In this document: one piece after another, positions 265 through 18,300 of the stretch | Position numbering within the stretch: position 1 is the first letter of the stretch | How the letters are laid out: every line of letters starts with the position of its first letter | Assembly (NCBI GenBank): GCA_023411815.1 | Contig: JAEYOJ010000076.1 | Span: 57,579-81,578 of the forward strand | Direction: 5' to 3' | DNA: 24,000 nt | Source of the DNA: Pseudomonadota bacterium | GTDB lineage: Bacteria > Desulfobacterota > Desulfovibrionia > Desulfovibrionales > Desulfovibrionaceae | Position numbers and translations under genes: made by a program | The notes under the pieces: generated by a model | The model's database searches: none | The model's input: only the letters and a program-made list of their open reading frames with translations | Told to the model about the DNA's origin: nothing

Positions 265-1914
265 ATGCACAAGCTTTCGCCCGTGTCATACGACGACTTC
301 AAGGACAAGTTCTCCCTGGAGGTGCCCGAAGGCTACAACTTCGCCTTCGACTTCCTGGACGCCGAGGCGGCCAAGGACCCCGCGCGGCCGGCCATGGTGC
401 ACATCGACCCCGACGGCAAGCGCCGCGACTACGACCTGGCCTTCTTCAGCCGCGAGTCGGCCAGGCTGGCCAACGCCCTGGTCGCCCAGGGCCTCAAGCG
501 CGGCGACCGGGTCATGGTCATCCTCTACCGCCGCGTGGAGTTCTGGGTGACCATGCTGGCCCTGCACAAGATCGGCGCCGTGCCCATCCCCTCGCCGAAC
601 CTGCTCACGGCCAAGGACATCGAGCAGCGCATCAACTACGCAAAGGTGCGCGCCGTGGTCTGCGAGCACACCATCACCGAGCGCGTGGAGCAGGCCAGGC
701 CCAAGTGCCCGACCCTGGGCGTCATGGTGCAGGTGGCCGGCGACGCGCTTCCGGCCGGCTGGGCGGGCTACTACGCCATCCTGCAGAAGGCCGGCGACGG
801 CTTTCCCGCTCCCAAGGGCAAGGACAAGCCCGGCGGCAATGACCCGCTGCTCATCTTCTTCACTTCCGGCACCACGGGCATGCCCAAGATGGCCGAGCAC
901 ACCCACGGCTACGCCCTGGGCCACTACACCACCGGCGCCTACTGGCATGACCTGAGGCCCGGCGACCTGCACCTGACCCTGGCCGACACGGGCTGGGGCA
1001 AGGCGGTCTGGGGCAAGTTTTACGGCCAGTGGATGGCCGGGGCCACGGTCTTCACCTGGGACTTCCGCGGCAAGTTCGACCCCGAGCATCTGCTGCAGCT
1101 CATCGCGGAGCACAAGGTCACCAGCTTCTGCGCGCCGCCCACGGTCTACCGCTTCCTCATCCGCCTGGACGTGTCCAAGCTCGACCTGTCCGCCCTGCGC
1201 CACTGCACCACGGCCGGCGAGCTGCTCAACGACAGCGTGTTCCTGGAGTGGAAGCGGTTGACCGGCCTGTCCATTTACGAGGGCTACGGCCAGACCGAGA
1301 CGACCCTGCAGATCGCCACCTTCCCCTGGATGGAACCCAAGCCCGGCTCCATCGGCCGCCCGGTGCCCGGCTGGAACCTGACCCTGCTCAAGGAGGACGG
1401 CACGTCCTGCTCGCCCGGCGAGGAAGGCGAGATCTGCATCGCCGTGGAGCCCAAGCGTCCCGTGGGACTGTTCACCGGCTACCTGGACGAGCCGGCCAAG
1501 ACCGCCTCGGTGGTCTACGACGGCTACTATCATACCGGCGACAAGGCCTGGATGGACGAGGACGGCTACTTCTGGTTCCTGGGCCGTACCGACGACCTCA
1601 TCAAGTCCTCGGGCTACCGCATCGGACCCTTCGAGGTGGAGAGCGCGCTCATCACCCACCCGGCGGTGGTGGAGGCGGCGGTGACCGGCGTGGCCGACCC
1701 CGTACGCGGCCAAGCGGTCAAGGCCACGGTCGTGCTGGCCAAGGGCTACGACCCGAGCGACGAGCTGACCAGGGAGCTGCAGCAGCACGTCAAGAAGACC
1801 ACCGCGCCCTACAAGTACCCGCGCATCATCGAATACGTGACCGAGCTGCCCAAGACCATCTCGGGCAAGATCAAGAGAGCGGAGATCAGGCAGCGGGACG
1901 AGCAGAAAGGCTAA
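265..1914 (+). CDS. AMP-forming acyl-CoA synthetase (medium-chain/aromatic acid-CoA ligase family)
   Basis: 549-aa ORF with a GAGGAG RBS 5-10 nt upstream of the ATG. AMP-binding signatures: FFTSGTTGMPK, YGQTE, YYHTGD, SSGYRIGPFEVE, PKTISGKIKR. Substrate cannot be inferred. Confidence 0.9.
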   Translation: MHKLSPVSYDDFKDKFSLEVPEGYNFAFDFLDAEAAKDPARPAMVHIDPDGKRRDYDLAFFSRESARLANALVAQGLKRGDRVMVILYRRVEFWVTMLALHKIGAVPIPSPNLLTAKDIEQRINYAKVRAVVCEHTITERVEQARPKCPTLGVMVQVAGDALPAGWAGYYAILQKAGDGFPAPKGKDKPGGNDPLLIFFTSGTTGMPKMAEHTHGYALGHYTTGAYWHDLRPGDLHLTLADTGWGKAVWGKFYGQWMAGATVFTWDFRGKFDPEHLLQLIAEHKVTSFCAPPTVYRFLIRLDVSKLDLSALRHCTTAGELLNDSVFLEWKRLTGLSIYEGYGQTETTLQIATFPWMEPKPGSIGRPVPGWNLTLLKEDGTSCSPGEEGEICIAVEPKRPVGLFTGYLDEPAKTASVVYDGYYHTGDKAWMDEDGYFWFLGRTDDLIKSSGYRIGPFEVESALITHPAVVEAAVTGVADPVRGQAVKATVVLAKGYDPSDELTRELQQHVKKTTAPYKYPRIIEYVTELPKTISGKIKRAEIRQRDEQKG

Positions 1915-1920
1915 GAAAAT

Positions 1921-1985
1921 CGGGAAGGACGTTGCCCTCCCCGAACCCCACCCACCAGGGGCGGACGCGCCCCTGGACCCGCGCA
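1921..1985 (+). repeat. REP-like two-hairpin element, copy A
   Basis: cgggaagg-acgtt-gccctcccc, then ccagggg-cggacgcg-cccctgg, then acccgcgc. The architecture matches the copies at 7901-7967, 8110-8173, 18111-18180 and 18221-18284. Confidence 0.6.
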
Positions 1986-2003
1986 TGGTGAGAAGTGTTA
2001 TGG

Positions 2004-2036
2004 AAAGGGCCGGGAGAGAAGATCTCCCGGCCCTTT
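2004..2036. terminator. Hairpin between convergent genes (likely bidirectional terminator)
   Basis: Perfect 14-bp stem AAAGGGCCGGGAGA / TCTCCCGGCCCTTT with loop gaaga. On the plus strand the stem ends in TTT followed by GTTG. It lies between the acyl-CoA synthetase stop (1914) and the minus-strand gene stop (2088). Confidence 0.65.
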
Positions 2037-2087
2037 GTTGCACAGGCTCAGTAGCTCAGTCTGCTTGGTTTACATCGCTGATGGTGA

Positions 2088-2804
2088 TCAATGCGGCTCA
2101 GCCGGGCCACGCAGGCGCGTCCATATGCGAGCGATGAAGGCTCCGAGCACCTGCCGCAAAGGCCGGCCAATGGGCTTTTCGGTATGGCTCTCGGCTGCGT
2201 GGGCCACCAGGGCGGCGATATCGCCCGGAGCAATGGACAACCTTTCTCCGTAGGCCTCCAGGTACTGCCGCAACGTACGTTCGAAGTCCTCCGGCCGGGC
2301 CGGGCCAGGGGCGGCCTCAATGCCCACTTGGCCTTCGGCGTTGACGAACAGGTTCAGCGACCGGCCCTGGGCGTCAAAGCCGAAAACCTCCGTATACTCC
2401 ACTTCGCTCGGCTCGACGTCGATGAGTGCTTCTTCCAGCGTCTCGTACAGGCGCATCTCGCAACAGGCGGACTCGAACAGGATGAGCGGCGGCGTGGGCG
2501 CGGCCGGGCCGCTCCGCGCGCCACGATCCGTGCGCGGAGCCGGGCCGGACCGGGCGAAGAGGAGCGCGAGCAGGCCCGCCGAGAGTGCCTCCACGGCCAG
2601 ACGCGCTGGCAGGAGCCCGTCCGCGTGGCCTTGAAGACTCAGGATCGACGCCTCGTACACCAGCGGCGTCAGGACCACCGGCCAAAGCACCTGTCGCTTG
2701 AACGAAGCCCCGCGCTTGCGCAACAGGGCTTGCGTAACGCGCACGAGAATGAACGCCGGTCCGAGGAAGAAGGCGAGCGGGCCCTGAAGGTCGACGGGGA
2801 TCAT
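2088..2804 (-). CDS. Membrane-anchored 'domain-X' protein (hypothetical), paralogous in its C-terminal part to 4567-5004
   Basis: ORF 2088-2879. I prefer the ATG at 2804 (MIPVDLQGPLAFFLG...); the longest form starts at GTG 2879, so the start is uncertain. Three hydrophobic segments (PLAFFLGPAFILVRV, LWPVVLTPLVYEASILSL, LAVEALSAGLLALLFA) are followed by a Pro/Arg/Gly linker and then domain X (about 2088-2492). The domain-X core EVFGFDAQGRSLNLF...VGIEAAPGPARPEDFERTLRQYLEA matches EYFGFDAKGRPLRFL...VGIEAADQPAQPEALERNLRAYLKA of the other copy. Confidence 0.55.
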   Translation of the reverse strand: MIPVDLQGPLAFFLGPAFILVRVTQALLRKRGASFKRQVLWPVVLTPLVYEASILSLQGHADGLLPARLAVEALSAGLLALLFARSGPAPRTDRGARSGPAAPTPPLILFESACCEMRLYETLEEALIDVEPSEVEYTEVFGFDAQGRSLNLFVNAEGQVGIEAAPGPARPEDFERTLRQYLEAYGERLSIAPGDIAALVAHAAESHTEKPIGRPLRQVLGAFIARIWTRLRGPAEPH

Positions 2805-2921
2805 GCGCTTTTCCCTGCCAATACGTGTGATGATGGACCCGAGCTCCTGCCGCAATGGCCGGCCCGTCCGCAAGACCACGGACAGGCCGCTCCGCGCGGG
2901 TTGCGTTGGATCACTCCCGGA

Positions 2922-3386
2922 TCATTCAACGTCCGGATAGTTCTCGTCGGGGATGGAACAACAGTCCGAGTAATTCTCGTCGGGGACGCGATACCAGGAA
3001 ATTATCTTCCATTCCCTGTCATAATCGCGCAGCATGTACCAGAACCGACTACGGACATCGCCAGTGTCGGGAAGGCGCCTGATGATTTCCACAGTAACCT
3101 CGACGTCATCCTCCCTGATCGGCCCGTCGGCGGTAATGGCTCCAGTATCCTGAGCCGGGTCGATCTCCACGATCATGCAGTCGCGCCATGGTATGGATGG
3201 ACTGTCAAGCTCGATGCCGCAGCACATGATAGCATTCCGCGTCTCCCGGTCCTGGGCCGTGCAGTAGGTCATAATGGCTGCCTCCGGGGTGGACAGGTCG
3301 ATTTCTCCCTCGGCCTGAGCCATCGAGACTGCAAGGAGAAGCGCCAAGATCAAGACCAGCAACATAGTGAAACGAGTTGCGGACAT
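2922..3386 (-). CDS. Exported Cys-rich protein (hypothetical); candidate periplasmic partner or immunity protein for the M23 peptidase
   Basis: 154 aa. Sec-type signal peptide MSATRFTMLLVLILALLLAVSMAQA/EG with no lipobox Cys. Six Cys residues. C-terminal tandem motif VPDENYSDCCSIPDENYPDVE. Its ATG lies 3 nt after the upstream gene's TAG (TAGgttATG). GC is lower than the flanks. Confidence 0.7.
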   Translation of the reverse strand: MSATRFTMLLVLILALLLAVSMAQAEGEIDLSTPEAAIMTYCTAQDRETRNAIMCCGIELDSPSIPWRDCMIVEIDPAQDTGAITADGPIREDDVEVTVEIIRRLPDTGDVRSRFWYMLRDYDREWKIISWYRVPDENYSDCCSIPDENYPDVE

Positions 3387-3389
3387 AAC

Positions 3390-4223
3390 CTACTCCGTTT
3401 TGATGAAATCAGCCGGATTACGCCTTTTGGTCTTGCCGTTCTCTATTTCGTATACTTCGAGATGGACATGGGGCTTTATTTCCGGTTCCTGATATTGCTC
3501 TCTCAGATCATGGAGCGTGCCGATCACCTGGCCTTCCTTGACTTGCGCGCCGCGCGGAATGCTTGGGGTGAAATGGAGCATGCGCACGGAATACTGTTTG
3601 TTGTCGGCGTCTCTTCTGGTTGTAATGCGCACGCCGTCATCAATGATCTCAGCCGCACCGTCGATGGTGGCGAAGACAGGATCTCCTACCTTGCCGATAT
3701 AGTCGATTCCCGCGTGCTTCCTCTTGCCGTGGGATCGGGATGACTCATATGTGCCTTCTCCCGCAATATCGTTCCGGATTTCCTGCCCGGTCGGGTTGGT
3801 CCAGGCCAGTTCCGGCCCGTGGGGGATTTTCCCGGCGTCCCGCCAAGCCTCGTGCTCCTCGTAGGCCTCCTGGGCCGCGCGAAATTCTCCGCTGCCCAGC
3901 GGCACGCGCAGGGGCTGGCCGGCCCTGCGTCGCGGGTTGACGAAGGAGAGCACCTCCTCATCCAGGCCCAGGGCCTCGGCCGACTGCGCAAGGCTTTCCC
4001 CGACCCGGGGCGCATAGCTGCCATGCCCGTTCCAGTTGCCGTACCTGTCCCGGCTCACGACGAGCCTGCCCGGCAACTCCACGGACGCGCCGCCGTCATG
4101 CCCTTCGCGCACTCTCGCCTTCAGGCGCACGCTGCTCGCGGCGTCATCCCCGCTGCGCCGTGCGAGCTCGTCTTCGTCAAAAAAAGATGTGAAAGCCTCT
4201 GCGATGCGATCGAAAATGCTCAT
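3390..4223 (-). CDS. LysM + M23 (LytM-type) peptidoglycan metallopeptidase without signal peptide
   Basis: I call the ATG at 4223 (MSIFDRIAEAF...), which has an AAGGTGG RBS 7 nt upstream. The track's longer ORF to 4514 is an out-of-frame run through the terL relic. LysM-like segment: YAPRVGESLAQSAEALGLDEEVLSFVNPRRRAGQPLRVPLG. M23 motifs: HAGIDY (HxxxD) and HVHLE (HxH). The N-terminus is acidic and non-hydrophobic. Confidence 0.85.
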   Translation of the reverse strand: MSIFDRIAEAFTSFFDEDELARRSGDDAASSVRLKARVREGHDGGASVELPGRLVVSRDRYGNWNGHGSYAPRVGESLAQSAEALGLDEEVLSFVNPRRRAGQPLRVPLGSGEFRAAQEAYEEHEAWRDAGKIPHGPELAWTNPTGQEIRNDIAGEGTYESSRSHGKRKHAGIDYIGKVGDPVFATIDGAAEIIDDGVRITTRRDADNKQYSVRMLHFTPSIPRGAQVKEGQVIGTLHDLREQYQEPEIKPHVHLEVYEIENGKTKRRNPADFIKTE

Positions 4224-4273
4224 GAAATCCCACCTTGTGCAAGCTGAAAATAGAGTAGCCGTTGCCACTATCC

Positions 4274-4480
4274 TCAATACCCCGCCATGCCGTCCGCCGG
4301 CCTTCCGCCGATACCGCCCCTGCGCCGGGCCGGGGCTTTGCGGCCAGGCTCCTCGGCGGCCAGGGCCGCGTATTGCAGGGCGTCGTGCACGTGGCTGTAG
4401 GCATTCTTCAGGGGCCGCTCGGCGAAGCGCTCCTCGCCGCCGGACATGATTGGCAGACGTTCGTAGCGGTAGCCGGACAG
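4274..4480 (-). pseudogene. Displaced 3' fragment of the terminase large-subunit gene (last ~68 codons plus stop)
   Basis: Minus-strand translation gives LSGYRYERLPIMSGGEERFAERPLKNAYSHVHDALQYAALAAEEPGRKAPARRRGGIGGRPADGMAGY*. This is collinear with the C-terminus of terL (6193-6400), about 91% nucleotide identity by my hand count (~19 mismatches in 209). There is no upstream terL sequence and no start context. Confidence 0.85.
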
Positions 4481-4485
4481 CCCCT

Positions 4486-4527
4486 GAAAAAGGAGCAGCC
4501 TTGGCCAAATGCATTGACCAAGGCTGC
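4486..4527 (-). terminator. Rho-independent terminator after cassette B
   Basis: Minus strand: GCAGCCTTGG-(13 nt loop containing AATGCATT)-CCAAGGCTGC followed by TCCTTTTTC. It lies 40 nt after the stop of gene 4567-5004 and directly abuts the terL relic. Confidence 0.65.
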
Positions 4528-4566
4528 CTTGCTGCTGAAGTTGCCGGGTAATCTGTTGAAAAGAGA

Positions 4567-5004
4567 TTATCTTCTGTTCTTGCTCAGTTGCTTACGAATA
4601 AACGCGAACAGTTCCCTGAATCCGTCCCGAAAGAAATGAAAAATAAAATGCGGATCATATACATACGAGTACCCCTCGACGGCCATGGCCATCAGGCAGG
4701 ACAGGTCGCACTCCGGGTCTTCGGCGCGCGCATCGGCCGCCTTCAGATAGGCGCGCAGGTTCCGCTCCAGGGCTTCGGGCTGCGCGGGCTGGTCGGCGGC
4801 CTCGATGCCCACCCGAATATGATCCAGGGCAAGGAAGCGCAACGGCCTGCCTTTGGCATCAAAGCCGAAATACTCGCCTTCAAGGACATCGTAGGCTTCG
4901 TAGTGGGCCTGGGCATCCTCCAGGTTTGAGAAGACATTCAGGTTGACGCCATCAATGTCGAAAACAAACAATGGGAATACGAGTTGGTTCGAGGTCTGCT
5001 CCAC
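4567..5004 (-). CDS. 'Domain-X' protein (hypothetical), soluble paralogue of 2088-2492
   Basis: 145 aa with a GTG start at 5004 and a GAGGA RBS 9 nt upstream. About half of the residues are identical to the other copy over a ~48-aa core (hand alignment). The C-terminal tail is aromatic and basic (YVYDPHFIFHFFRDGFRELFAFIRKQLSKNRR). Confidence 0.7.
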   Translation of the reverse strand: MEQTSNQLVFPLFVFDIDGVNLNVFSNLEDAQAHYEAYDVLEGEYFGFDAKGRPLRFLALDHIRVGIEAADQPAQPEALERNLRAYLKAADARAEDPECDLSCLMAMAVEGYSYVYDPHFIFHFFRDGFRELFAFIRKQLSKNRR

Positions 5005-5050
5005 GGACGTTCATCCTCGCGGTTTGGTGCACTTGAATACAACAAGGCTT

Positions 5051-5755
5051 TCAATGCTCCTCCATCACCTCGATCCCCGGCGCGACCTCATGGACGAACG
5101 CCTCGGCCTCCCGCTGCGTGGAAAACACGCCTCCCGTGAACACGCCGTCGATGATCTCTCCTTGGATGTTCATGCTGGCGATGACCCGCCCATTGCAATA
5201 GTGTATAATGAGCTGTCGCCCCACGTTTCCCCGCGTCAAATCGGCGAACAAGGGGTGATATGCGTCCGAAAAGCGATACAGGATTTGAAACAAGACCGCA
5301 GGGCCGAAACTCCTCTGCTCGATCGACGCGGACTGCAGCATGCCGGGTTGCAGATCGAGTTCCAGCGGGTCGGGCGCGAATGGGCCATGTACCGGTATCT
5401 CCCCGATCCCAGGCAGTACCTCGCGGATGAAGTCCTCGGCTTCCTGGAGCGTTTTGTATGATCCACCACTGATAGTACCACGAAGTATTTCAGCTTGTAC
5501 TCTAGTGCTGACGAGTATTCTTTCCTTATATGAAATGGCAAGGCGTCGTCCAATATTTTCCTTGGTTAACTTCGCAAAATCGCTACAGAATGGATCAACA
5601 AGTCGGAGTACGACGTTGTATTCTTTGCTTGATGCCGCAATCCAGGCTGACCCAATCATGTGAGGCTCCAATTCATATTTAAGCGTATCAGCAAAAGAAA
5701 TTGTGTAAGAAATAAAAACAAAACAGATCAGTGAAATAAATATATTTTTGCACAT
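5051..5755 (-). CDS. Exported protein with two tandem SecD/SecDF P1-head-like repeats (hypothetical)
   Basis: 234 aa. Signal peptide MCKNIFISLICFVFISYTISFA/DT. Internal repeat: FAKLTKENIGRRLAISYKERILVSTRVQAEILRGTISGGSYKTLQEAEDFIREVLPGI versus FADLTRGNVGRQLIIHYCNGRVIASMNIQGEIIDGVFTGGVFSTQREAEAFVHEVAPGI. From memory, the pattern F..T..N(I/V)G(K/R).LAI....V.S...I...I.GG...I.G.F...EA resembles the SecD periplasmic head; this is not verified. Its ATG lies 3 nt after the upstream TAG (TAGattATG). Confidence 0.7.
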   Translation of the reverse strand: MCKNIFISLICFVFISYTISFADTLKYELEPHMIGSAWIAASSKEYNVVLRLVDPFCSDFAKLTKENIGRRLAISYKERILVSTRVQAEILRGTISGGSYKTLQEAEDFIREVLPGIGEIPVHGPFAPDPLELDLQPGMLQSASIEQRSFGPAVLFQILYRFSDAYHPLFADLTRGNVGRQLIIHYCNGRVIASMNIQGEIIDGVFTGGVFSTQREAEAFVHEVAPGIEVMEEH

Positions 5756-5758
5756 AAT

Positions 5759-6145
5759 CTACTCCTTATCCAAGGTTGTGTAGATAGCATACTGAACAAC
5801 AAATGCATCGGAATCTGTGGATATAATAAAACGCCAGTTCACGGTGTCATGTCCAAAGTAGTTAAATCGAAATGTCTGCGTGGAGTGAGGCACAAGGAGC
5901 GCACCCCTGCTTCCATCGTGGTTGCTGGATATGGAAATCATTGCTCCAAGGACATTTACGTTTTTTACTTCGATCCAGACAACTTGGCCGAGTGTCGCGG
6001 AAAAGACAACACCTCCGTTCCAGATCCCCGTATCCCAAAGATGTCTTTTCCCACTCTGTCGCTGGGACTCATTATCCTCGCCATGTCCACTCGATGTAAG
6101 TTCATTGATCGCCTCTTTGAACCATCTGGAAAACTCGCTGCTCAT
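5759..6145 (-). CDS. Hypothetical 128-aa leaderless protein (effector candidate of cassette B)
   Basis: ATG at 6145 preceded by a strong GGGAGGAG RBS. The track's longer form starts at a TTG overlapping the terL stop and is rejected. The gene is AT-rich (~40% GC by eye) and the sequence looks beta-rich. I recognise no motif. Confidence 0.6.
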   Translation of the reverse strand: MSSEFSRWFKEAINELTSSGHGEDNESQRQSGKRHLWDTGIWNGGVVFSATLGQVVWIEVKNVNVLGAMISISSNHDGSRGALLVPHSTQTFRFNYFGHDTVNWRFIISTDSDAFVVQYAIYTTLDKE

Positions 6146-6191
6146 GATGCTCCTCCCATATTGGTGAATGGTTCCCATGCACAATTCATTT

Positions 6192-6400
6192 CTCAATACC
6201 CCGCCATGCCGTCCGCCGGCCTTCCTTCCGCTCCGCCCCTGCGCCGGGCCGGGGCCTTGCGGCCGGGCTCCTCGGCGGCCAGGGCCGCGTACTGCAGGGC
6301 GTCGTGAATGTGGCTGTACTGGTTTTTCAGGGGCCGCTCGGCGAAGCGCTCCTCGCCGCCGGACATGACCGGCAGGCGTTCGTAGCGGTAGCCGGACAGG
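6192..6400 (-). repeat. Direct-repeat copy 2 (functional terL 3' end), partner of 4272-4480
   Basis: The offset between the copies is exactly 1920 bp. Homology starts at the stop codon (ctcaatacc...) and ends at ...gccggacag. Confidence 0.85.
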
Positions 6401-7641
6401 AAGCCCTTGCGCAGCAGCGTGCAGCTCGGGGAGAGCAGAAAAGCCGGGGCGTCCGCCTCACCGCCGGCCAGGAACCCGGCCACGGCCTCGCGCCGGGCCG
6501 TGAAGTCGTTGCTGCGCGCGGGCTGGGTCGGGATGCCCGCGGCGGCCAGCTCGTCCATGCAGGTGCGCTCGTCGGTCTGGGCGCGGGCCCGGCCAGCCGG
6601 GTCGCCGTGGCTCTGCACGGACAGCCCGGCGAAGCGCGAGCGCAGGGCCGGGGCCACGACCTCGCGGGCGAAGCGGCGGATGCCCGTGCCCTGCCCCGCG
6701 AATTCGGCCAGCACGAGCAGCCTGCCACCGGGCGCGAGCTGCGTCGCCACGCAGGCCGGGGTCAGGCCGAAGTCCCAGCCCAGCAGGAGCGGCACGCCCG
6801 GCAGTGCTGCGAGATCCTGCCGCGCCAAATGGCGCTCGTCGTCGTACTCCGGGTACACGGGCCTGCCCTCGGCTACGCAGCCGTAGCGGCCTTGCAGGTA
6901 GACCGCGACCCACTGGCGGCTCTTGCCCGCGGCCTGGCGCAGCCAGTACTCGCCGCCCAGCGGCTGGTGACGCAGGTTCTCGGCCAGCGGGTTGAGCGCG
7001 AACCCTTCTTTCATCTCGACCAGAGCGGCCGGCTGTCTAAAGAATTCCCAGCCCTCGGGCCGCCGCTCCTCGGCCAGCCTGTGCCACCAGTGGCCTTCGT
7101 CGGGAGGGTTGCTGTCCATGACGAGCCCGGACCAGCTCGGCCCGCCTAGCCGCTTGGGCGGATAGCGGCCCACGCGGCCCAGCAGGGCGTCGAGCACGGC
7201 CTTGTCCACCTCGCGCGCCTCGTTGACCCAGGCCCCGGTCAGCTCCAGGGACAGGAGTTTGCGCGCGTCGTCGGCGCTGTCCAAAGCCAGGAAGAGCGCC
7301 TCCATGTCCAGGCGCGTGCCGTCGGCCAGCGGAGCGGCCATGCGCGCCGTGAGCGGCGCGCTGCCGCGCACCGGGCAGACCTGCGCCGGAGCCCAGTCGG
7401 CCCAGGTCTTGAGCGTGGTGGTGCGCAGCTCGGGATAGGTGTTGCGCACCACGGCGAAGCGCGTGCGCCGCACGCCGTCCGGGCCGGGCCGCTGGCGCGC
7501 GGCGCGCAGCAGCAGCTCCACGCACATGGCCGAGGACTTGCCCGAGCCCACCGGCCCCATGACCCCGCGCACGAAGGCCCGGCTGCGATGGAAGCGCGCC
7601 AGGGTCGGCTCGGCGCGGTAGCCCACGACAAGTTCGCTCAT
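6193..7641 (-). CDS. terL: Phage terminase large subunit (TerL)
   Basis: 482 aa. GGGGAGG RBS and an ATGA overlap with terS. Walker A is GPVGSGKS, followed by VVRNTYPELRTTT. The candidate Walker B region is LTGAWVNEA. RNase-H-like nuclease motifs: LLLGWDFGLTP, HGDPAG, HIHDALQYA. Confidence 0.9.
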   Translation of the reverse strand: MSELVVGYRAEPTLARFHRSRAFVRGVMGPVGSGKSSAMCVELLLRAARQRPGPDGVRRTRFAVVRNTYPELRTTTLKTWADWAPAQVCPVRGSAPLTARMAAPLADGTRLDMEALFLALDSADDARKLLSLELTGAWVNEAREVDKAVLDALLGRVGRYPPKRLGGPSWSGLVMDSNPPDEGHWWHRLAEERRPEGWEFFRQPAALVEMKEGFALNPLAENLRHQPLGGEYWLRQAAGKSRQWVAVYLQGRYGCVAEGRPVYPEYDDERHLARQDLAALPGVPLLLGWDFGLTPACVATQLAPGGRLLVLAEFAGQGTGIRRFAREVVAPALRSRFAGLSVQSHGDPAGRARAQTDERTCMDELAAAGIPTQPARSNDFTARREAVAGFLAGGEADAPAFLLSPSCTLLRKGFLSGYRYERLPVMSGGEERFAERPLKNQYSHIHDALQYAALAAEEPGRKAPARRRGGAEGRPADGMAGY

Positions 7642-8321
7642 CGGCCGGCCTCCCCGTCGCTGCCTGCGGCCTGGGCTTCATCGTCCAGGCGGATGTCGAA
7701 GCGCACCAGCAGCGGCTCGTCGGCCTCGTCGCCGGACCGCCCCGACTGGCCGGACTGGCCGAGCAGGCCCAGCACCTTGGCCAGCAGCTCCCAGGCCTTG
7801 ATCCTGTTGGCCTGGCCCGGGTCCTTGCCCTCGCCGCTGGCCTCCTCGTACAGCCCGGACACGACCATCTCGCGCGTTACGTTGGTTACCGGCGGTGTAG
7901 CTGGAGAGGGGCTCTGCCCCTCTCCAGACCTCTCCCCGCCAGGGCGTGACGACGCCCTGGACCCGCGATGTTGCGTGGCGGTCGGCTCGGGGGCTTGCGG
8001 ATGTTCGAGCGCTGGTTGTGCGCTTTGGGCATGGGATTGGTCTTGAAACCCTTCAAGACAGCTTATCGTATCGTCCAGCGACTCCGCGAAGCGTCCCACA
8101 CCCGAACTACGCGGGTCCAGGGGGCCGTTGCCCCCTGGTGGGAGGGGTCTGGGGAGGGCGACGCCCTCCCCGGCTCTTGCTTTCGCCTCCAGCAATCGTC
8201 CTGCAGTGAACGCGGCCAGGCGCTCGTCGTAGCTTGCCGCCACGGCCGCGCGCGCCCCGTCGCCGCAGCGTTCGTACTCCGCGAAAAACCGCTCCTGCCG
8301 CTCCTTTGTCCCCTTGCGCAT
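7638..8321 (-). CDS. terS: Phage terminase small subunit (TerS) carrying a ~90-aa low-complexity insertion
   Basis: ATG at 8321 with a GGAGGGTG RBS. The N-terminus KERQERFFAEYERCGDGARAAVAASYDERLAAFTAGRLLE matches the usual TerS HTH pattern (KQErF..EY....na..Aa..AGYs...A...a.rLL). The C-terminus is ANRIKAWELLAKVLGLL. The middle part (7901-8173) is encoded by REP-like repeats. Confidence 0.75.
   Translation of the reverse strand: MRKGTKERQERFFAEYERCGDGARAAVAASYDERLAAFTAGRLLEAKARAGEGVALPRPLPPGGNGPLDPRSSGVGRFAESLDDTISCLEGFQDQSHAQSAQPALEHPQAPEPTATQHRGSRASSRPGGERSGEGQSPSPATPPVTNVTREMVVSGLYEEASGEGKDPGQANRIKAWELLAKVLGLLGQSGQSGRSGDEADEPLLVRFDIRLDDEAQAAGSDGEAGR
7901..8173. repeat. Inverted pair of REP-like two-hairpin elements (MITE-like) inside terS
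   Basis: Copy B at 7901-7967 (ctggagagggg-ctctg-cccctctccag ... ccagggcg-tgacga-cgccctgg-acccgcg). Copy C at 8110-8173 is the same architecture in reverse complement. They flank a ~140-bp core. Confidence 0.6.
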
Positions 8322-8333
8322 GCCGCACCCTCC

Positions 8334-8366
8334 AAAAAAGAAGCGGGGAGGCTTGCGCCTCCCCGC
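8334..8366 (-). terminator. Intrinsic terminator-like hairpin immediately upstream of the terS RBS
   Basis: Minus strand: GCGGGGAGGC-GCAA-GCCTCCCCGC-TTCTTTTTT, running directly into GGAGGGTGCGGC-ATG (terS). Perfect 10-bp GC-rich stem, GNRA-type tetraloop and a T-tract. Confidence 0.6.
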
Positions 8367-8787
8367 GTTGCATGGGCCGGATTGCCCCATCAGGCTTTTA
8401 TAATAGCATAATTGCGCTGAATGCGCCAGTCTGGCTGTCGCTTATTAGTTGAATGCTCGGTCAGGAAACAGCATCAACTCCTGCCTGCCGGTTTAGGCCA
8501 GCCATCCAATTCGCAGGCCCAAACAGTAGCAAAGGATTCCAAGTTCCGCAGGACATCGTTTTCTTTCTTTACGGCGTTTTTATCTTGCTCGGACATAGCC
8601 TGCTATATATGGTTTCCAATAGAGTTCCATCCAACGCCGGCAGTTAAGTACGCGATATCCTTAAATCCGGATGAATGGAGGCGGCTGAATATTTGTATAC
8701 GTCTCTTCTCCTGCTCCACACGGGCAAGGCATGCCGAAGTTACGATACGCGCCCATTCCAGAAGAGCCCTGGAAGGATCAATGCTTG

Positions 8788-8816
8788 TTGAAGCAGGAAA
8801 AATATGTTATTATAAT
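8788..8816 (+). promoter_or_regulatory. Sigma70-type promoter candidate for the stressosome operon
   Basis: TTGAAG (8788-8793), a 17-nt spacer, then TATAAT (8811-8816), in an AT-rich region about 75 nt upstream of the rsbR-like ATG. Confidence 0.45.
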
Positions 8817-8890
8817 AGATTATATTGCAATTCAAATTTGAGAGATAGCTACATTGCTCCGAGTGCATACTTGAAGAGTTGGAGGACAGA

Positions 8891-9763
8891 ATGCCAAAGA
8901 CGGATAATGCAGTCATTCAGATGATCAGGGACAAAAAGAAGCAAATCCTGGAGGCCTGGCTGAAGGCCCAGTATGAAAGCAAGGTCATCAGGCTGGACCT
9001 CATCAACAAGGGCGAGCTGGCGACCCAGTCCGAGGAGTTCCTCGATGCCTTCGTGGACGCCCTCAAGACCGGGAATTTCGAGGACATCGCGGCCCCCGAG
9101 TACAAGTCCGTGGTCCAGATGCTCGGCGACATCTCCAGGTCGCGGACCAGGCAGGGCTTCAGTCCGACCGAAACCGCCACCTACGTCTTCAGCCTCAAGG
9201 ACACGCTCCTTGAATTTCTGCAGGACGAGTTCCGCGACAGGCCCGGCGAACTGAATGCACAGATCACCAAGTTCTCCAAGCTGCTCGACAGCCTGGGTCT
9301 CGTGACCTTCGAGTCCTACACGCACGGCCGCGAGGACATCATCCAGCGTCAGCAGCAGGAGATCCTCGAGCTTTCCACCCCGGTCATCCGCATCTGGAAG
9401 GGCGTGCTCTCGGTCCCGCTCATCGGCACGCTCGACAGCGCGCGCACCCAGATCATCATGGAGAACCTCCTGCAGCAGATCGTGGCCACCGAGTCCTCCG
9501 TGGCCATCCTCGACATCTCGGGCGTGCCGGCGGTGGACACCCTGGTGGCCCAGCACCTCCTCAAGACCGTCAGCGCGGCGCGGCTCATGGGCGCCGAGTG
9601 CATCATCAGCGGCATCCGGCCCGAGATCGCCCAGACCATGGTCAACCTCGGCGTGGACATCAACGTGAAGACCAAGGCCACCTTGGGCGAGGCGCTCAAG
9701 GAGGCCTTTACCCTGGTAGGCCTGCGAGTCGTCCGCAACGAGGTCGCATCCGAGAGGCGCTAG
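8891..9763 (+). CDS. rsbR: RsbR-like stressosome sensor protein (N-terminal sensory domain + C-terminal STAS)
   Basis: ATG at 8891 with a GGAGGA RBS at 8881; the track's TTG start at 8879 is rejected. STAS region: LSTPVIRIWKGVLSVPLIGTLDSARTQ...ILDISGVPAVDTLVAQHLL...GAECIISGIRPEIAQTMVNLG. The stop abuts the next start (TAGATG). Confidence 0.85.
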   Translation: MPKTDNAVIQMIRDKKKQILEAWLKAQYESKVIRLDLINKGELATQSEEFLDAFVDALKTGNFEDIAAPEYKSVVQMLGDISRSRTRQGFSPTETATYVFSLKDTLLEFLQDEFRDRPGELNAQITKFSKLLDSLGLVTFESYTHGREDIIQRQQQEILELSTPVIRIWKGVLSVPLIGTLDSARTQIIMENLLQQIVATESSVAILDISGVPAVDTLVAQHLLKTVSAARLMGAECIISGIRPEIAQTMVNLGVDINVKTKATLGEALKEAFTLVGLRVVRNEVASERR

Positions 9764-10159
9764 ATGGACAAGATCCCCATTCTCAGGATGGGCCCGTTCC
9801 TCCTGGTGACCATCCAGGTGGACATGCACGACCGGCTGGCCATGACGCTCCAGGACGACCTGACGCGCATGGTCGGCGCGAGCGGCGCAAAGGGCGTGCT
9901 CATCGACATCTCGGCCCTGGACATCGTGGATTCCTTCATGGGCCGCATGCTGGGCAGCATCGCCTCCATGACCCGCATCATGGACGCCGAGACCGTGGTC
10001 GTGGGCATGCAGCCCGCGGTGGCCATCACGCTCGTGGAACTGGGGCTGTCCCTGCCCGGAGTGCTCACGGCGCTCAACGTGGACAAGGGCATGGAGATGC
10101 TCACGCAGCGCCTGGGGCTGGCCGCGAGAGACGGCAAGGCGACGCATGAAGACGACTGA
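9764..10159 (+). CDS. rsbS: RsbS-like single-STAS stressosome scaffold protein
   Basis: 131 aa. IPILRMGPFLLVTIQ...LIDISALDIVDSFMGRML...VVVGMQPAVAITLVELGL is collinear with B. subtilis RsbS as I recall it. Ser57 in the VDSF motif aligns with the phospho-acceptor. Confidence 0.9.
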   Translation: MDKIPILRMGPFLLVTIQVDMHDRLAMTLQDDLTRMVGASGAKGVLIDISALDIVDSFMGRMLGSIASMTRIMDAETVVVGMQPAVAITLVELGLSLPGVLTALNVDKGMEMLTQRLGLAARDGKATHEDD

Positions 10160-10550
10160 GCTGGAGGCCCTGCGGGTAGCCGACGAGGCCGGAATCGTCA
10201 GCGCCAGGCGTCTGGCGCGCGATCACGCCGTGCGGCTCGGCTTCAGCCTGGTGAACCAGACCAAGCTGGTGACGGCAGTGAGCGAGCTGGCCCGCAACAT
10301 GGTCGTTTACGCGGGAGGCGGAATTGTCCGCATCGAGGAGATCGCGAGCGGGATGAGGCGAGGTCTGCGAATAACCTTTCAGGACAGCGGCCCGGGCATA
10401 CAGGACATCGAGCTGGCCATGCGCGACGGCTATACGACCGGCGGCGGGCTCGGGCAGGGATTGCCCGGCTCCAAGCGCCTGGTGAGCGAGTTCACCATCA
10501 ACTCACGGGTGGGCGTCGGGACGACCGTGACCATCACCCACTGGAAATAG
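10146..10550 (+). CDS. rsbT: RsbT-like serine/threonine kinase (GHKL, HATPase_c_2)
   Basis: 134 aa with a 14-nt overlap with rsbS. Motifs: VTAVSELARNMVVYAGGG, FQDSGPGIQD, GGGLGQGLPGSKRL, GVGTTVTITHW. Confidence 0.9.
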   Translation: MKTTELEALRVADEAGIVSARRLARDHAVRLGFSLVNQTKLVTAVSELARNMVVYAGGGIVRIEEIASGMRRGLRITFQDSGPGIQDIELAMRDGYTTGGGLGQGLPGSKRLVSEFTINSRVGVGTTVTITHWK

Positions 10551-11594
10551 ATGCGCACAATGTTGAGCGGCCTCAAGGCGCACGAGCGGTTTCCCGTCTC
10601 CGAGTCCAGCCAGGTGGGCAGCCTGCGCCGCGCGGTGGCCGCCCTGGCCCGCGGTCAGGGCATGGGCCAGGAGCAGGCGGCCAGGGCCGCGATAATGGCC
10701 ACGGAGATGGGCACCAACCTCGTCAAGCATGCGCGGGGCGGGGGCGAGGTGCTCGTGCGCTCCATCTCCGGAGGGCCGGGCGGGCTGGAACTGCTGAGCC
10801 TGGACAAGGGCCCAGGCATGGAGAACCCGGCCCGCATGCTCCAGGACGGGGTCTCCACCACCGGCAGCCCCGGAACCGGCCTGGGCGCGCTCAAGCGGCT
10901 CTCCAACGAGTTCGGGATCTACTCCCGCCTCGGGTCGGGCACCGCCGTCTTCGTGCGCTTATGGGCCAGGGACCATGACCTCCAGCCGATCGCCGCTCCC
11001 TGCGAAATGGGCATGGTCATGCTGCCCAAGCCGGGCGAGGAGGCCTGCGGCGACGGCTGGTGCATCTCGCCCGCCGAGGGCAGGCTGACGGTGCTGGTCA
11101 GCGACGGGCTCGGCCATGGCCCGCTGGCGGCCGCGGCCTCCCAGGAGGCCATCCGCGCCTTCAGCGAAAGGCCGGATCTCGCGCCGACCGAAACGGTGAG
11201 CATGGTCCATGAGCGCCTGCGGCGCACTCGCGGGGCGGCCGTGGCCGTGGCCGATGTCCACGCCGGTCGGGCCGCTCTGGACTATGCCGGCATCGGCAAC
11301 ATCGCGGGCAGGATCATGCGCCCGGACGGCGCCATGACGAGCCTCGTGTCCATGAGCGGGATCGTCGGCCACCAGATCGGCAGAATGCAGGCGTTCTCCT
11401 ACGCCTGGGGCGAGGGCGACCTGCTGATCATGAACTCCGACGGATTGCGCACGGCCTGGGACCTGTCGGCCTATCCCGGCCTGGAAAACCAGCATGCGGC
11501 CGTCATCGCCGGCGTCCTGTACCGGGACTTCACCCGCGGCAGCGACGACGTCGCGGTCGTCGCAGTGCGGGCGGGGCGGGGCGGACGGCCATGA
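10551..11594 (+). CDS. ATP-binding SpoIIE/PP2C-family phosphatase (RsbT/RsbW-like ATPase domain fused to RsbX-like phosphatase)
   Basis: 347 aa. The N-terminal half has GHKL motifs (ATEMGTNLVKHA, LDKGPGMEN, GTGLGALKRL). The C-terminal half is PP2C-like (GEEACGDGWCI...LVSDGLGHGPLAAAAS...ADV...NSDGL). Its ATG directly follows the rsbT TAG. Confidence 0.85.
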   Translation: MRTMLSGLKAHERFPVSESSQVGSLRRAVAALARGQGMGQEQAARAAIMATEMGTNLVKHARGGGEVLVRSISGGPGGLELLSLDKGPGMENPARMLQDGVSTTGSPGTGLGALKRLSNEFGIYSRLGSGTAVFVRLWARDHDLQPIAAPCEMGMVMLPKPGEEACGDGWCISPAEGRLTVLVSDGLGHGPLAAAASQEAIRAFSERPDLAPTETVSMVHERLRRTRGAAVAVADVHAGRAALDYAGIGNIAGRIMRPDGAMTSLVSMSGIVGHQIGRMQAFSYAWGEGDLLIMNSDGLRTAWDLSAYPGLENQHAAVIAGVLYRDFTRGSDDVAVVAVRAGRGGRP

Positions 11595-18110: not shown

Positions 18111-18284
18111 CTGGGAGAGGGGCGCCGCCCCTCTCCCAGACCCTCACCCTGCCAGGGGGATGATCCCCCTGGATCCCGCATTTTTTGTAAATTGAACCCC
18201 GAGCCGCGCGCGAACGAATTGCGCGGGTCCAGGGCCGCGTCGGCCCTGGTGGGATGGGTCCGGGAAGGGCAACGCCCTTCCCGG
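18111..18284. repeat. Inverted pair of REP-like two-hairpin elements between convergent genes
   Basis: Copy D at 18111-18180 (ctgggagagggg-cgccg-cccctctcccag ... ccaggggga-tga-tccccctgg-atcccgca, then TTTTTT). Copy E at 18221-18284 has the same architecture in reverse complement. Confidence 0.6.
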
Positions 18285-18300
18285 TTCTCTGTGCTCCGCC

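Follow-up and report, generated by a model that had tools for sequence, protein, structure and literature searches.

Duplicated terL 3′ end around a cargo cassette in a chromosomal terS-terL islet of a Desulfovibrionaceae bacterium

In the 24-kb stretch of DNA analyzed here (the window), an intact large-terminase gene, terL, is followed by a cassette of three small genes with a terminator and then by a second copy of the terL 3′ end that lacks a gene body. The best explanation is that a second, older terL allele left its 3′ end, now displaced, as this orphan (4274-4480), and that in this gene family cargo differing between strains occupies a slot directly behind the terL stop codon. The arrangement probably arose by recombinational displacement of a module, with homology in terL as the anchor and an illegitimate join at the other end, and then spread by ordinary homologous recombination. 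The setting is not a phage genome but a chromosomal islet of about 6.4 kb (terS-terL and cargo) between host genes. From terS to the right border, its features are:

7638..8390, minus strand: terS, small terminase (Pfam Terminase_2 at 3.5e-4; phrog_51)
6193..7641, minus strand: terL, large terminase, intact 482-aa ORF (phrog_2 at 1.2e-19)
6192..6399, minus strand: repeat copy 1, the true terL 3′ end (last 68 codons, stop codon and 1 nt)
6146..6191, minus strand: J1, spacer that separates terL from gene A and contains a ribosome-binding site
5759..6145, minus strand: gene A, 128 aa, no signal peptide, GC 37-49%
5051..5755, minus strand: gene B, 234 aa, a signal peptide and then two SecDF-P1-head-like repeats (PF22599 at 7.2e-14; hydrophobic N-terminus)
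4567..5004, minus strand: gene C, 145 aa, uncharacterised small-protein family
4485..4528, minus strand: Rho-independent terminator (15-bp stem and T-tract), end of the cassette, directly adjoining the orphan
4273..4480, minus strand: repeat copy 2, the orphan terL 3′ end (68 codons and stop codon, without gene body)
3390..4223, minus strand: M23 peptidase gene, 277 aa, no signal peptide, first gene of the putatively displaced module (PF01551; endolysin PHROGs)
2922..3386, minus strand: orf154, secreted Cys-rich protein
2088..2879, minus strand: orf263, a membrane segment and a C-terminal domain paralogous to gene C, last islet gene
1914..1985, strand not assigned: REP-like palindromic element, right border of the islet

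The two terL ends and the genes behind them

A repeat search of the window placed the direct repeats at 4273-4480 and 6192-6399. They are 208 nt long and 91% identical with no gaps, and their starts are 1919 nt apart. The pair had been described as about 209 bp, about 91% identical without an indel and 1920 bp apart; the repeats are real, and their length and spacing are corrected here. A recount gave 19 mismatches in 208 positions, with exact runs of 43, 34, 26, 23, and 23 nt. In a self-BLAST the repeat scored 294 bits, compared with at most 41 bits in 20 dinucleotide-preserving shuffles. The 208-nt pair is by a wide margin the longest in the 24-kb window, the runner-up being 48 nt long and 73% identical. 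Homology runs from 1 nt past the terL stop codon (TGA, the complement of 6193-6195) to ...GCCGGACAG (4480/6399), as the initial annotation had proposed (a start within 1-2 nt of the stop codon and the same end).

With terL on the minus strand (6193..7641), the gene body continues into the copy at 6193-6399, and that at 4274-4480 is the orphan. The displaced terL end without a gene body that the initial annotation recognized is supported, at 4274-4480. Both copies encode the last 68 TerL residues, with the nuclease motif HIHDALQYA in the intact gene and HVHDALQYA in the orphan, matching the roughly 68 residues with H(V/I)HDALQYA first read there. The frame is still open in the window stub. The 57-aa ORF that gene callers place at 4274..4447 was rejected as spurious, since it is a terL fragment, and this "hypothetical protein" should get no gene annotation.

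After the stop codon the two copies are followed by entirely unlike sequences, from 1 nt on. Within the repeat the differences are mostly synonymous or at codons variable among alleles, with a dN/dS of 0.27; the copies differ at codons 27, 31, 57, and 58, all variable among alleles. When polarised with relatives, seven changes were specific to the orphan, all GC-to-AT transitions, compared with one such transition in the intact copy. We dropped the dN/dS of 0.27 as proof of two functional parents, as it became ambiguous once these transitions were found; the orphan changes resemble neutral decay and there are only 19 differences, which leaves this case for two parent alleles, both functional, a weak one. 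The orphan matches its own terL at 66 of the first 69 nt, compared with 57 of 69 for the L028 stub and 59 of 69 for that of L040. The much better preservation of the window orphan fits later homologous recombination with a functional allele that renewed the stub.

The three genes and terminator described between the repeats were found as a compositionally foreign cassette (GC 37-62%, versus 64-78% in the flanks) that ends in the terminator. The terminator is conserved in L028, L040, and L035. We rejected an integron cassette, as no integrase was found and the sole inverted repeat at the cassette end is the ordinary terminator. J1 and the first ~40 nt of gene A form the conserved left flank: homology is unbroken from terL to window position 6107 in L038 and L040, and L028 has a second J1 copy (3926-3981, 92% identity). 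The first 13 aa of gene A are those of a 153-aa protein of L040, the rest of which is unrelated. Homologues of gene B are encoded in L028, L038, and L052, and those of gene C (69-83%) lie 3′ of terL in L028 and L035-37. The gene C family numbers 350 clusters among representatives. An AF2 model of gene C (pLDDT 89, from a 61-sequence alignment) had no fold match when searched with Foldseek against PDB and BFVD. Gene A, gene C, orf154, and orf263 have no family match in Pfam, NCBIfam, PADLOC, or PHROGs, and A, B, and C have no tblastn match among 50,697 phage genomes.

On the other side of the orphan, the junction through the spacer to the M23 gene is conserved in L052, which has two copies of orf154. 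The orf263 product is 39% identical to that of gene C over 103 aa, and a 237-aa homologue of it is encoded directly after gene B in L038. A gene of the gene C family closes both modules. As the downstream module ends in a gene C paralogue, the structure looks like a tandem of two islet cargo modules, of which the second is 5′-truncated.

The islet in its chromosome and in relatives

The window TerL is 40-44% identical to annotated podophage TerLs over 92-94% of the protein, and the N-terminal domain of the phage Mx8 TerL matches at 7106-7621 with 53% identity (tblastn). It has no Pfam match at 0.01, its relatives carry PF04466 or PF03237, and an exact-protein look-up returned no record. The motifs GPVGSGKS (Walker A), GWDFG, HGDPAG, and HIHDALQYA are present and kept in ten relatives; as in other TerL proteins, their residues would be catalytic in the ATPase and nuclease. 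By sequence matches and motifs, the gene is a genuine terL. Its ORF is intact at all ten of the ten loci, with dN/dS of 0.18-0.49. No portal, capsid, or tail gene, and so no phage morphogenesis module for terL, was found within the 24-kb window. In terS, the N- and C-terminal parts are conserved and the middle ~100 codons are REP-like insertions in frame (REP copies at 7924-7992 and 8110-8177); by tblastn against L028, L038, L040, and L035 the two ends alone match.

Relatives with 67-86% identical TerL also have host genes on their flanks, and their terL ORFs are unbroken, at dN/dS of 0.2-0.35. YibE_F, alkaline phosphatase, and SOD genes are recurrent chromosomal neighbours among them, and the window islet lies in another neighbourhood. 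In a more distant relative (L043) the order is terS-terL-SU10 portal, and in L045 and L053 host genes separate terL from a cluster of SU10-type portal and capsid genes. Neither the islet nor its surroundings contain an integrase, other recombinase, tRNA gene, or Rfam element, no window ORF has a recombinase domain, and the remark in the initial annotation that no integrase is present holds. A tRNA-targeting island and a structured RNA were discarded on these grounds. Two further ORFs were rejected as genes: orf432 (8849..10147, minus strand), opposite a host operon on the plus strand, resembles a shadow ORF, whereas orf167 (8421..8924, plus strand) resembles AT-rich intergenic sequence.

Past the terL stop codon, the alleles of the window, L028/L038, L035, and L040 continue into at least four different sequences. 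Yet another follows the window orphan and is common to L052. The junction of the terminator with the terL stub is common to the window, L028, and L040, although the contents are A-B-C, A′-B-stub-C, and A*-C*, respectively; a junction common to L028 and L040 with different contents predates this genome. L035 has the terminator and no stub, L035 and L038 both have cassette genes without any stub, and the minimal islet, in L035-37, is terS-terL-C. L028 and L038 have near-identical terL genes (dS 0.095) and the same downstream host genes, with unlike cargo. The L040 A-like protein has another C-terminus than that of gene A and its gene overlaps one of the gene C family; the L040 slot also encodes a defence-type ATPase (PADLOC mad3).

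L040 has one stub, and L028 has three terL 3′ pieces in series, a full end and two stubs. The full end lies at 2690-2896. The second piece (3851-3981) consists of the last 75 nt of terL, then a J1 of the window type and the beginning of gene A, and the third (4630-4711) of the first 82 nt. Unlike the -207 breakpoint, that of the middle stub is at -75 and cuts the end of gene B. The combination of terL end, J1, and gene A start therefore occurs twice in L028, but its two J1 sequences differ and come from different alleles rather than from a simple duplication in cis. The L028 and L040 stubs are decayed and truncated at different points.

No allele with an empty site, in which an intact terL directly precedes the M23 gene, was recovered among the relatives. 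The sole relative with M23, L052, has a terL end and then M23 on a contig that starts inside terL, 181 nt before the stop codon, so that it has the order looked for and stops short of proving an empty site. Its M23-linked terL end has 13 differences to the window intact copy and 21 to the orphan; this closeness to the intact copy is unexpected if the resident allele was the M23-linked one. Metagenome scans with the M23 protein and with a 25-nt terL-end pattern gave no match. A sliding-window comparison of terS-terL with four relatives gave no clear recombination breakpoint, including inside terL.

Origin of the orphan terL end

What we infer about the sequence of events, the enzymes involved, and which way the DNA was transferred is as follows. 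A related islet segment, with an intact terL, J1, A, B, C, and the terminator, would have entered a cell and recombined with a resident islet whose terL preceded M23, orf154, and orf263. One crossover would have used homology in terL or terS, and the other end would have joined illegitimately beside the T-tract of the terminator, ~207-220 nt before the resident terL stop codon, an event of homology-facilitated illegitimate recombination. The product would be an intact terL with new cargo, followed by the stub of the resident terL and the old cargo shifted downstream. At the junction there is a microhomology, GCTGCT/GCTCCT (GCTSCT), between the terminator arm by the T-tract and terL just upstream of the repeat; it is short and blurred by lineage-specific small indels. 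Since the cassette lies between two terL-homologous arms, with the gene as left arm and the stub as right arm, a RecA-type double crossover could copy it into a related terL and regenerate an intact gene. The repeats could also recombine and loop the cassette out. A dedicated recombinase would be unnecessary.

Of the two mechanisms first suggested, this one, homologous recombination in terL with an illegitimate crossover, fits best. The initial annotation had also taken the 1920-bp unit as the incoming module. Displacement is retained, but the 1919-bp unit cannot be shown to be what entered, as the junction is shared with L028 and L040 around other contents and no breakpoint was found that would mark the left limit of the incoming DNA.

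The strongest of the alternatives, though we think it unlikely, is that replication slippage or an unequal exchange between sister chromatids duplicated the terL end in cis within one genome, with neutral decay of the extra copy and separate acquisition of the cassette. The seven GC-to-AT transitions of the orphan against one in the intact copy are as for a decaying duplicate. A larger tandem duplication that includes cassette genes, named at the outset as the case against displacement, is seen in part in L028, where the terL end, J1, and the start of gene A recur. However, the J1 copies there are of different allele types. The window duplicates the terL end only and none of A, B, or C; its two copies are wholly unlike from 1 nt past the stop codon, and they differ at the allele-variable codons 27, 31, 57, and 58. 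Nor does slippage yield a 207-nt duplication that exactly brackets a foreign low-GC insert.

The second mechanism of the initial annotation, site-specific integration that regenerates the gene end, is disfavoured and appears quite improbable. It would require a 1.9-kb circular cassette with its own terL 3′ end and an integrase acting in trans, with the repeats as attL and attR. The direct repeats do flank the cassette exactly, terL is rebuilt to its stop codon, and the icd/icdC locus has the same anatomy (PMC13626634). In the window, L028, and L040, the stub also shares its first terL position. A junction at one and the same place in three genomes could in itself mean site specificity, but common descent explains the common junction because the adjoining spacer is also homologous. 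The cassette, islet, and window encode no integrase or recombinase. The 19 mismatches are spread across the repeat, with a longest exact run of 43 nt and no obvious identical core with divergent flanks. The crossover position is not fixed, as the middle stub of L028 breaks at -75 and cuts gene B, and L035 and L038 have cassette genes and no stub. Contents that vary between conserved flanks point instead to homology-based exchange.

It is very improbable that the stub is kept for a function, whether as a second packaging (pac-like) or regulatory site or as a switch that removes the cassette and changes four TerL residues. At least ~70 nt are retained 3′ of the terminator of the gene-C-family gene in three genomes, the exact runs of 43 and 34 nt would suffice for RecA-dependent loop-out, and the frame of the window stub is open. 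The decayed L028 and L040 stubs are cut at different points, however, and L035 and L038 do without one. Structured RNA or Rfam elements were not found, and the alternative forms were not seen in four assemblies of the same strain.

We regard as negligible the chance that the assembly collapsed or chimerically joined two strain variants: the source is probably metagenome-derived and short contigs break off close to the repeat (L050 begins 30 nt into it, L052 181 nt before the stop codon), but three independent ENA assemblies reproduce the arrangement, their contigs L048 and L049, which span both copies, and L051, which spans the orphan with both its junctions, being 99.7-100% identical to the window, Logan contig L050 independently confirms the orphan-M23 junction, assemblers can tell the copies apart because 19 sites differ, and related genomes have homologous junctions. 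An assembly artefact, which the initial annotation had asked to exclude, is thereby rejected.

Known systems and meaning

Sequential displacement by homology-facilitated illegitimate recombination is documented for T6SS/Rhs loci (Kirchberger et al. 2017, PMC5361080). Like Rhs, CDI, and T6SS arrays, the islet has a conserved upstream gene as homology anchor with variable cargo immediately 3′, and older modules shifted downstream are headed by anchor fragments without a gene body, several in series in L028. As in those arrays, there is no recombinase, and orphans may later be exchanged by ordinary homologous recombination. Here, however, the anchor is a phage large-terminase gene rather than a toxin-delivery gene, and the duplicated piece is a constant gene end rather than a variable toxin tip. 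The C-terminus of terL itself is not polymorphic. Compared with the toxin-immunity cargo of Rhs, CDI, and T6SS loci, the cytoplasmic M23 followed by secreted orf154 (doubled in L052) and the A-like swap of L040 are a suggestive layout only.

Islands that target tRNA genes are integrative elements that regenerate a gene 3′ end. In E. coli icd, e14 and phage 21 leave an icdC pseudogene (PMC13626634). Similar to e14/icd, the window has an intact hybrid gene, an insert, and then the displaced 3′ fragment as a direct repeat with few substitutions, and loss of the insert would leave a chimeric but functional gene. Those elements are whole prophages or islands with an integrase next to the att site, unlike the 1.7-kb insert of three small genes found here, with breakpoints at -207 and -75 and a junction common by descent.

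Prophages and satellites such as P2 and P4 have cargo hotspots ("morons", defence hotspots) between conserved genes. The terL slot resembles them in its sharp border between a conserved gene and a hypervariable low-GC slot with its own terminator, and in the unrelated genes of each allele. It differs in that the backbone is terS-terL only, chromosomal and without the rest of a phage. P2 and P4 hotspots are not known to keep stubs of the flanking gene, as the terL slot does.

Gene transfer agents (GTAs) and other domesticated phage gene sets can lie at several loci, as with RcGTA and BaGTA, and the Desulfovibrio agent Dd1 is known only as particles and a predicted terS-terL pair (PMC11841831, PMC6854486). 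Like GTAs, the terS-terL pairs described here are intact among host genes, have recurrent neighbours, and can be split from a portal-capsid cluster (L045, L053). Unlike GTAs, there are no structural genes in the window. We offer as speculation, with doubts, that in Desulfovibrionaceae the terS-terL(-C) islet is the domesticated DNA-packaging module of a system spread over several loci, either GTA-like or capsid-hijacking, that the slot after terL takes up cargo that varies by strain and may consist of toxin-immunity or defence genes, and that the stub is a portable right homology arm. Slow prophage decay is an alternative reading of the lone terS-terL pairs. If the speculation is true, cassettes running from terL to a terL stub could be inserted into related terL genes by homologous recombination, the essential nuclease motif being rebuilt each time, and would make up a cassette system that does without a recombinase and has a terminase gene as its anchor.

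The islet is a clean comparative case of cargo genes stacked behind a conserved gene without a dedicated recombinase, and carries the orphan-fragment logic of Rhs, CDI, and T6SS loci over to the terminase gene of a phage. A set of lone intact terS-terL pairs in the chromosomes of Desulfovibrionaceae comes to light as well, with a hypervariable slot directly behind the terL stop codon. Should these pairs be functional, for instance in a GTA-like system, the locus would couple DNA packaging to exchangeable cargo and offer a way into the Desulfovibrio transfer particles, which are still poorly characterised.

The repeated terL end and the genes it brackets

The 3' end of terL occurs twice in the window. 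A repeat search of the window delimits an indel-free direct repeat of 208 nt (4273-4480 and 6192-6399, 1919 nt from start to start) whose copies differ at 19 of 208 positions (90.9% identity; exact runs of 43, 34, 26, 23 and 23 nt). In the pairwise alignment of the two copies similarity ends abruptly on both sides. Self-BLAST scores the repeat at 294 bits, a value that 20 dinucleotide-preserving shuffles never approach (maximum 41 bits), and the second-longest repeat of the window is only 48 nt at 73% identity. Two ENA contigs (L048 and L049) cover both copies and a third (L051) covers the orphan copy with its two junctions, all at 99.7-100% identity to the window; the junction of the orphan with the M23 gene is seen again in a Logan contig (L050). 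Metagenomes containing this strain are ENA ERZ28600665/SAMN17215455, ERZ28602179/SAMN17215449 and SRR13358433. As the arrangement recurs in independent assemblies, an assembly artefact is ruled out for practical purposes, and the repeat reported in the initial annotation is real.

Features of the islet; all genes of terS-terL, the cassette and the downstream module lie on the minus strand
7638-8390, minus: terS, small terminase (Terminase_2, phrog_51), overlapping terL
6193-7641, minus: terL, large terminase of 482 aa (phrog_2, 1.2e-19)
6193-6399, minus: true terL end, last 68 codons including HIHDALQYA, and stop codon
46 nt between terL and gene A: spacer J1
5759-6145, minus: gene A, 128 aa
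5051-5755, minus: gene B, 234 aa, signal peptide and two SecDF-P1-head-like repeats (PF22599, 7.2e-14)
4567-5004, minus: gene C, 145 aa
4528-4485, minus: terminator upstream of the orphan, 15-bp stem and T-tract
4274-4480, minus: orphan terL end with its own stop codon and without a gene body; it encodes the same 68 residues, five of them changed
3390-4223, minus: M23 peptidase gene, the first after the orphan
2922-3386, minus: orf154, secreted 154-aa protein
2088-2879, minus: orf263, 263-aa membrane protein
1914-1985, 7924-7992, 8110-8177, 18197-18290, and L048 9499-9564 and 9660-9743, both orientations: several copies of a ~65-nt GC-rich palindromic (REP- or MITE-like) element

TerL shares 40-44% identity with podophage TerLs across more than 90% of its length; against the N-terminal domain of the phage Mx8 TerL the figure is 53%. 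TerS has 250 aa in the window versus 133-140 aa in phage-like relatives because two of the palindromic copies lie inside its ORF, in the non-conserved middle and with the frame kept. A further copy lies at the islet's right edge. A 57-aa protein called at 4274-4447, also in L048, L049 and L051, lacks a ribosome-binding site; we rejected it as a gene, since it is no more than the end of the orphan terL fragment read in frame.

The cassette has a GC content of 37-62%, compared with 64-78% in its flanks. Within gene B (cf. 3231-3844 of locus L028) the SecDF-P1-head-like domain of ~100 aa is tandemly duplicated after the signal peptide, and the two halves have unequal GC contents of about 40% and 58%. 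Over its C-terminal 130 residues, orf263 is paralogous to gene C (39% identity). The same ORF holds a 44-nt direct repeat (2125-2168 and 2821-2864, 82% identity) encoding GRPLRQ.LG..I.RI at its N- and C-terminal ends, which may be a further module-junction scar, with the end of an otherwise lost gene-C-family gene fused to the following gene.

Cargo and stubs at related loci

Cassettes and neighbouring genes at loci with TerL relatives, with the window for comparison
Window: cassette A-B-C
L028: TerL 86%; upstream PhzF-like gene; downstream DUF2795, GDT1, malQ; cassette gene A remnant, B, second stub, C
L038/L039: TerL 86%; upstream SOD; downstream DUF2795, GDT1; cassette (L038) gene A remnant, B, orf263-like gene, without stub
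L040: TerL 84%; upstream hybrid kinase; downstream SMC-like ATPase; cassette A-like gene (only the first 13 residues like gene A) and C-family gene nearer orf263
L035-37: TerL 80%; upstream aminotransferase; downstream ferredoxin gene; minimal form terS-terL-C; cassette (L035) gene C and terminator, without stub
L041: TerL 67%; upstream SOD; downstream pyrB

An intact terL ORF is present at every relative locus compared, with pairwise dN/dS of 0.18-0.49. The sequence after its stop codon is of one type in the window terL, L040 and the middle stub of L028, of another in the native copy of L028 and L038, of another in L035, and of yet another in the window orphan and in L052, a JGI contig (3300049891, Ga0526189_330861) with an M23-linked terL end. 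Because this sequence varies among alleles, terL is a conserved anchor and the cargo switches exactly at its end. L028 and L038 are alleles differing by cargo exchange, as their terL genes are near-identical (dS 0.095) and both are followed by the host genes DUF2795 and GDT1.

The spacer, terminator and stub start are homologous in the window, L028 and L040 (81-83%). L028 carries three serial terL 3' pieces: an intact end, a piece with the last 75 nt, and a piece with the first 82 nt (4630-4711). In its middle piece (3851-3981), which is 92% identical to the window, the last 75 nt of terL are followed by J1 of the window type and by the gene A start (9 nt); this piece truncates gene B at its end. 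Compared with their own terL over the first 69 nt, the stubs match at 66/69 positions in the window, 59/69 in L040 and 57/69 in L028; the latter two have many non-synonymous changes, and the window stub has kept its reading frame. Judged by these sequences, the stubs are of unequal age. The initial interpretation is borne out in part, in that the displaced terL end marks cassette turnover.

Origin of the duplicated end

The anatomy, the shared and distinct junctions, the array of stubs and the absence of a recombinase are observed directly, and recombinational module displacement with an illegitimate join is the reading they best support. Which allele was resident, which enzymes acted and in what order events took place we infer. 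An incoming terL-J1-A-B-C-terminator segment would pair with a resident terL-M23-orf154-orf263 islet through terL/terS homology, and its non-homologous end would join illegitimately by the terminator T-tract, ~207-220 nt ahead of the stop codon of the resident terL. A GCTSCT microhomology at the join is short and blurred by later indels. As the anchor homology extends downstream past the join, the last 207 nt of terL would be duplicated, and the resident cargo would be displaced downstream of the new cassette.

The junction is common to three genomes, and the founding event is therefore old. Of the incoming 1920-bp module first proposed, the displacement stands, but the junction, found also in L028 and L040, is inherited and was not made in the window's genome. 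After the founding event the cassette would sit between two terL-homologous arms, so that a naive terL could receive it by an ordinary double crossover. The stub left by this transfer would consist largely of the recipient's 3' end, functional until recently, which would account for the much fresher state of the window stub compared with the others. The different breakpoint of the middle stub in L028 indicates that displacement occurred more than once. The same process has been proposed for T6SS effector-immunity arrays and Rhs/CDI orphans (PMC5361080), which the terL islet resembles in this respect.

The dN/dS of 0.27 between the repeat copies weakly suggests two functional parent alleles. 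When the 19 differences were polarised with relatives, however, seven were orphan-specific GC-to-AT transitions versus a single change unique to the intact copy; this is the pattern of neutral decay in a GC-rich genome and makes the dN/dS test ambiguous. The M23-linked terL end of L052 differs from the intact window copy at 13/181 positions and from the orphan at 21, and does not fit a simple resident/incoming picture. Comparison with relatives revealed no recombination breakpoint within terL, and searches for M23-linked terL relatives proved no empty-site allele with intact terL directly followed by M23.

Recombination, one of the mechanisms initially suggested, is likely on our reading; the other, integrase action, is unlikely. 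Site-specific integration of the e14/icd-icdC type (PMC13626634) has an anatomy that the locus shares, but it is disfavoured: there is no recombinase, mismatches are scattered over the whole repeat, the second breakpoint in L028 differs, and some relatives have cassette genes without a stub. A simple duplication in cis is improbable, as it leaves unexplained both why the terL end alone is duplicated and how it exactly brackets foreign low-GC DNA. That the stub itself functions, as a pac-like site or loop-out switch, is very unlikely and finds no support in the present data.

Chromosomal setting and cargo

terS and terL lie here in a chromosomal islet (roughly 1986-8420), not in a phage. No portal, capsid, tail or integrase gene occurs in the 24-kb window, and no tRNA gene or Rfam match was found at the islet. 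An AMP-dependent synthetase gene flanks one side; on the other come a partner-switching and histidine-kinase operon and then further housekeeping genes. Positions 8400-8900 have a GC content of 43-47% and are probably a divergent promoter region bounding the islet. A 432-aa minus-strand ORF at 8849-10147 was set aside, as it looks like a shadow ORF opposite a plus-strand host operon that leads into HATPase, SpoIIE and histidine-kinase genes at 10146-13003.

More distant relatives include L043 (TerL 59%), which has the usual phage order Mor-terS-terL-SU10 portal-capsid. L045 (9001-19542) and L053 (618-10054), with TerL at 63-65%, encode TPR, ferredoxin, YibE_F and alkaline phosphatase between terL and an SU10-type portal-capsid cluster, and relatives with TerL at 59-67% (L045, L053, L041, L046 and L047) recurrently adjoin YibE_F, alkaline phosphatase and Fe-SOD genes. 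These arrangements suggest an old phage-derived gene set, possibly GTA-like, that is vertically inherited in the Desulfovibrionaceae and fragmenting in the chromosome with terL kept. L035 and L036 come from one JGI sample; they agree at 99.97% from the terS-terL-C islet on and are wholly different upstream of ~7444 (a 670-aa protein gene versus an aminotransferase gene), so that either the strain was rearranged at the islet border or the assembly is chimeric.

Genes A and C, orf154 and orf263 have no family match in Pfam, NCBIfam, PADLOC or PHROG, and A, B and C have none among 50,697 phage genomes. The gene C family comprises about 350 clusters of 100-150-aa proteins without a Pfam model; the AF2 model of gene C is confident (pLDDT 89) and has no Foldseek neighbour in PDB or BFVD. 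The M23 peptidase is cytoplasmic and the next gene encodes the secreted orf154, which is doubled in L052. There (1062-2038) tandem orf154 genes of 144 and 153 aa (73% mutual identity) follow M23 and precede a gene-B-like gene, so the same modules exist in another order. In L040 a 153-aa protein encoded after terL (3969-4430, overlapping the gene-C-family gene) begins with the gene A start (residues 1-13, MSSEFSRWFKEA) and continues into a basic, His-rich C-terminus unrelated to gene A; this constant start with a variable end resembles polymorphic toxin loci. Directly after the L040 stub lies a 531-aa SMC_N/AAA_23 ATPase (5102-6697; PADLOC mad3, 7e-32, nearly full length), which hints that defence genes also use the slot after terL. 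The cargo may be toxin-immunity or defence genes, of which some features of its layout are reminiscent. If lone terminase pairs are a true working packaging module with exchangeable cargo, the finding would gain weight.
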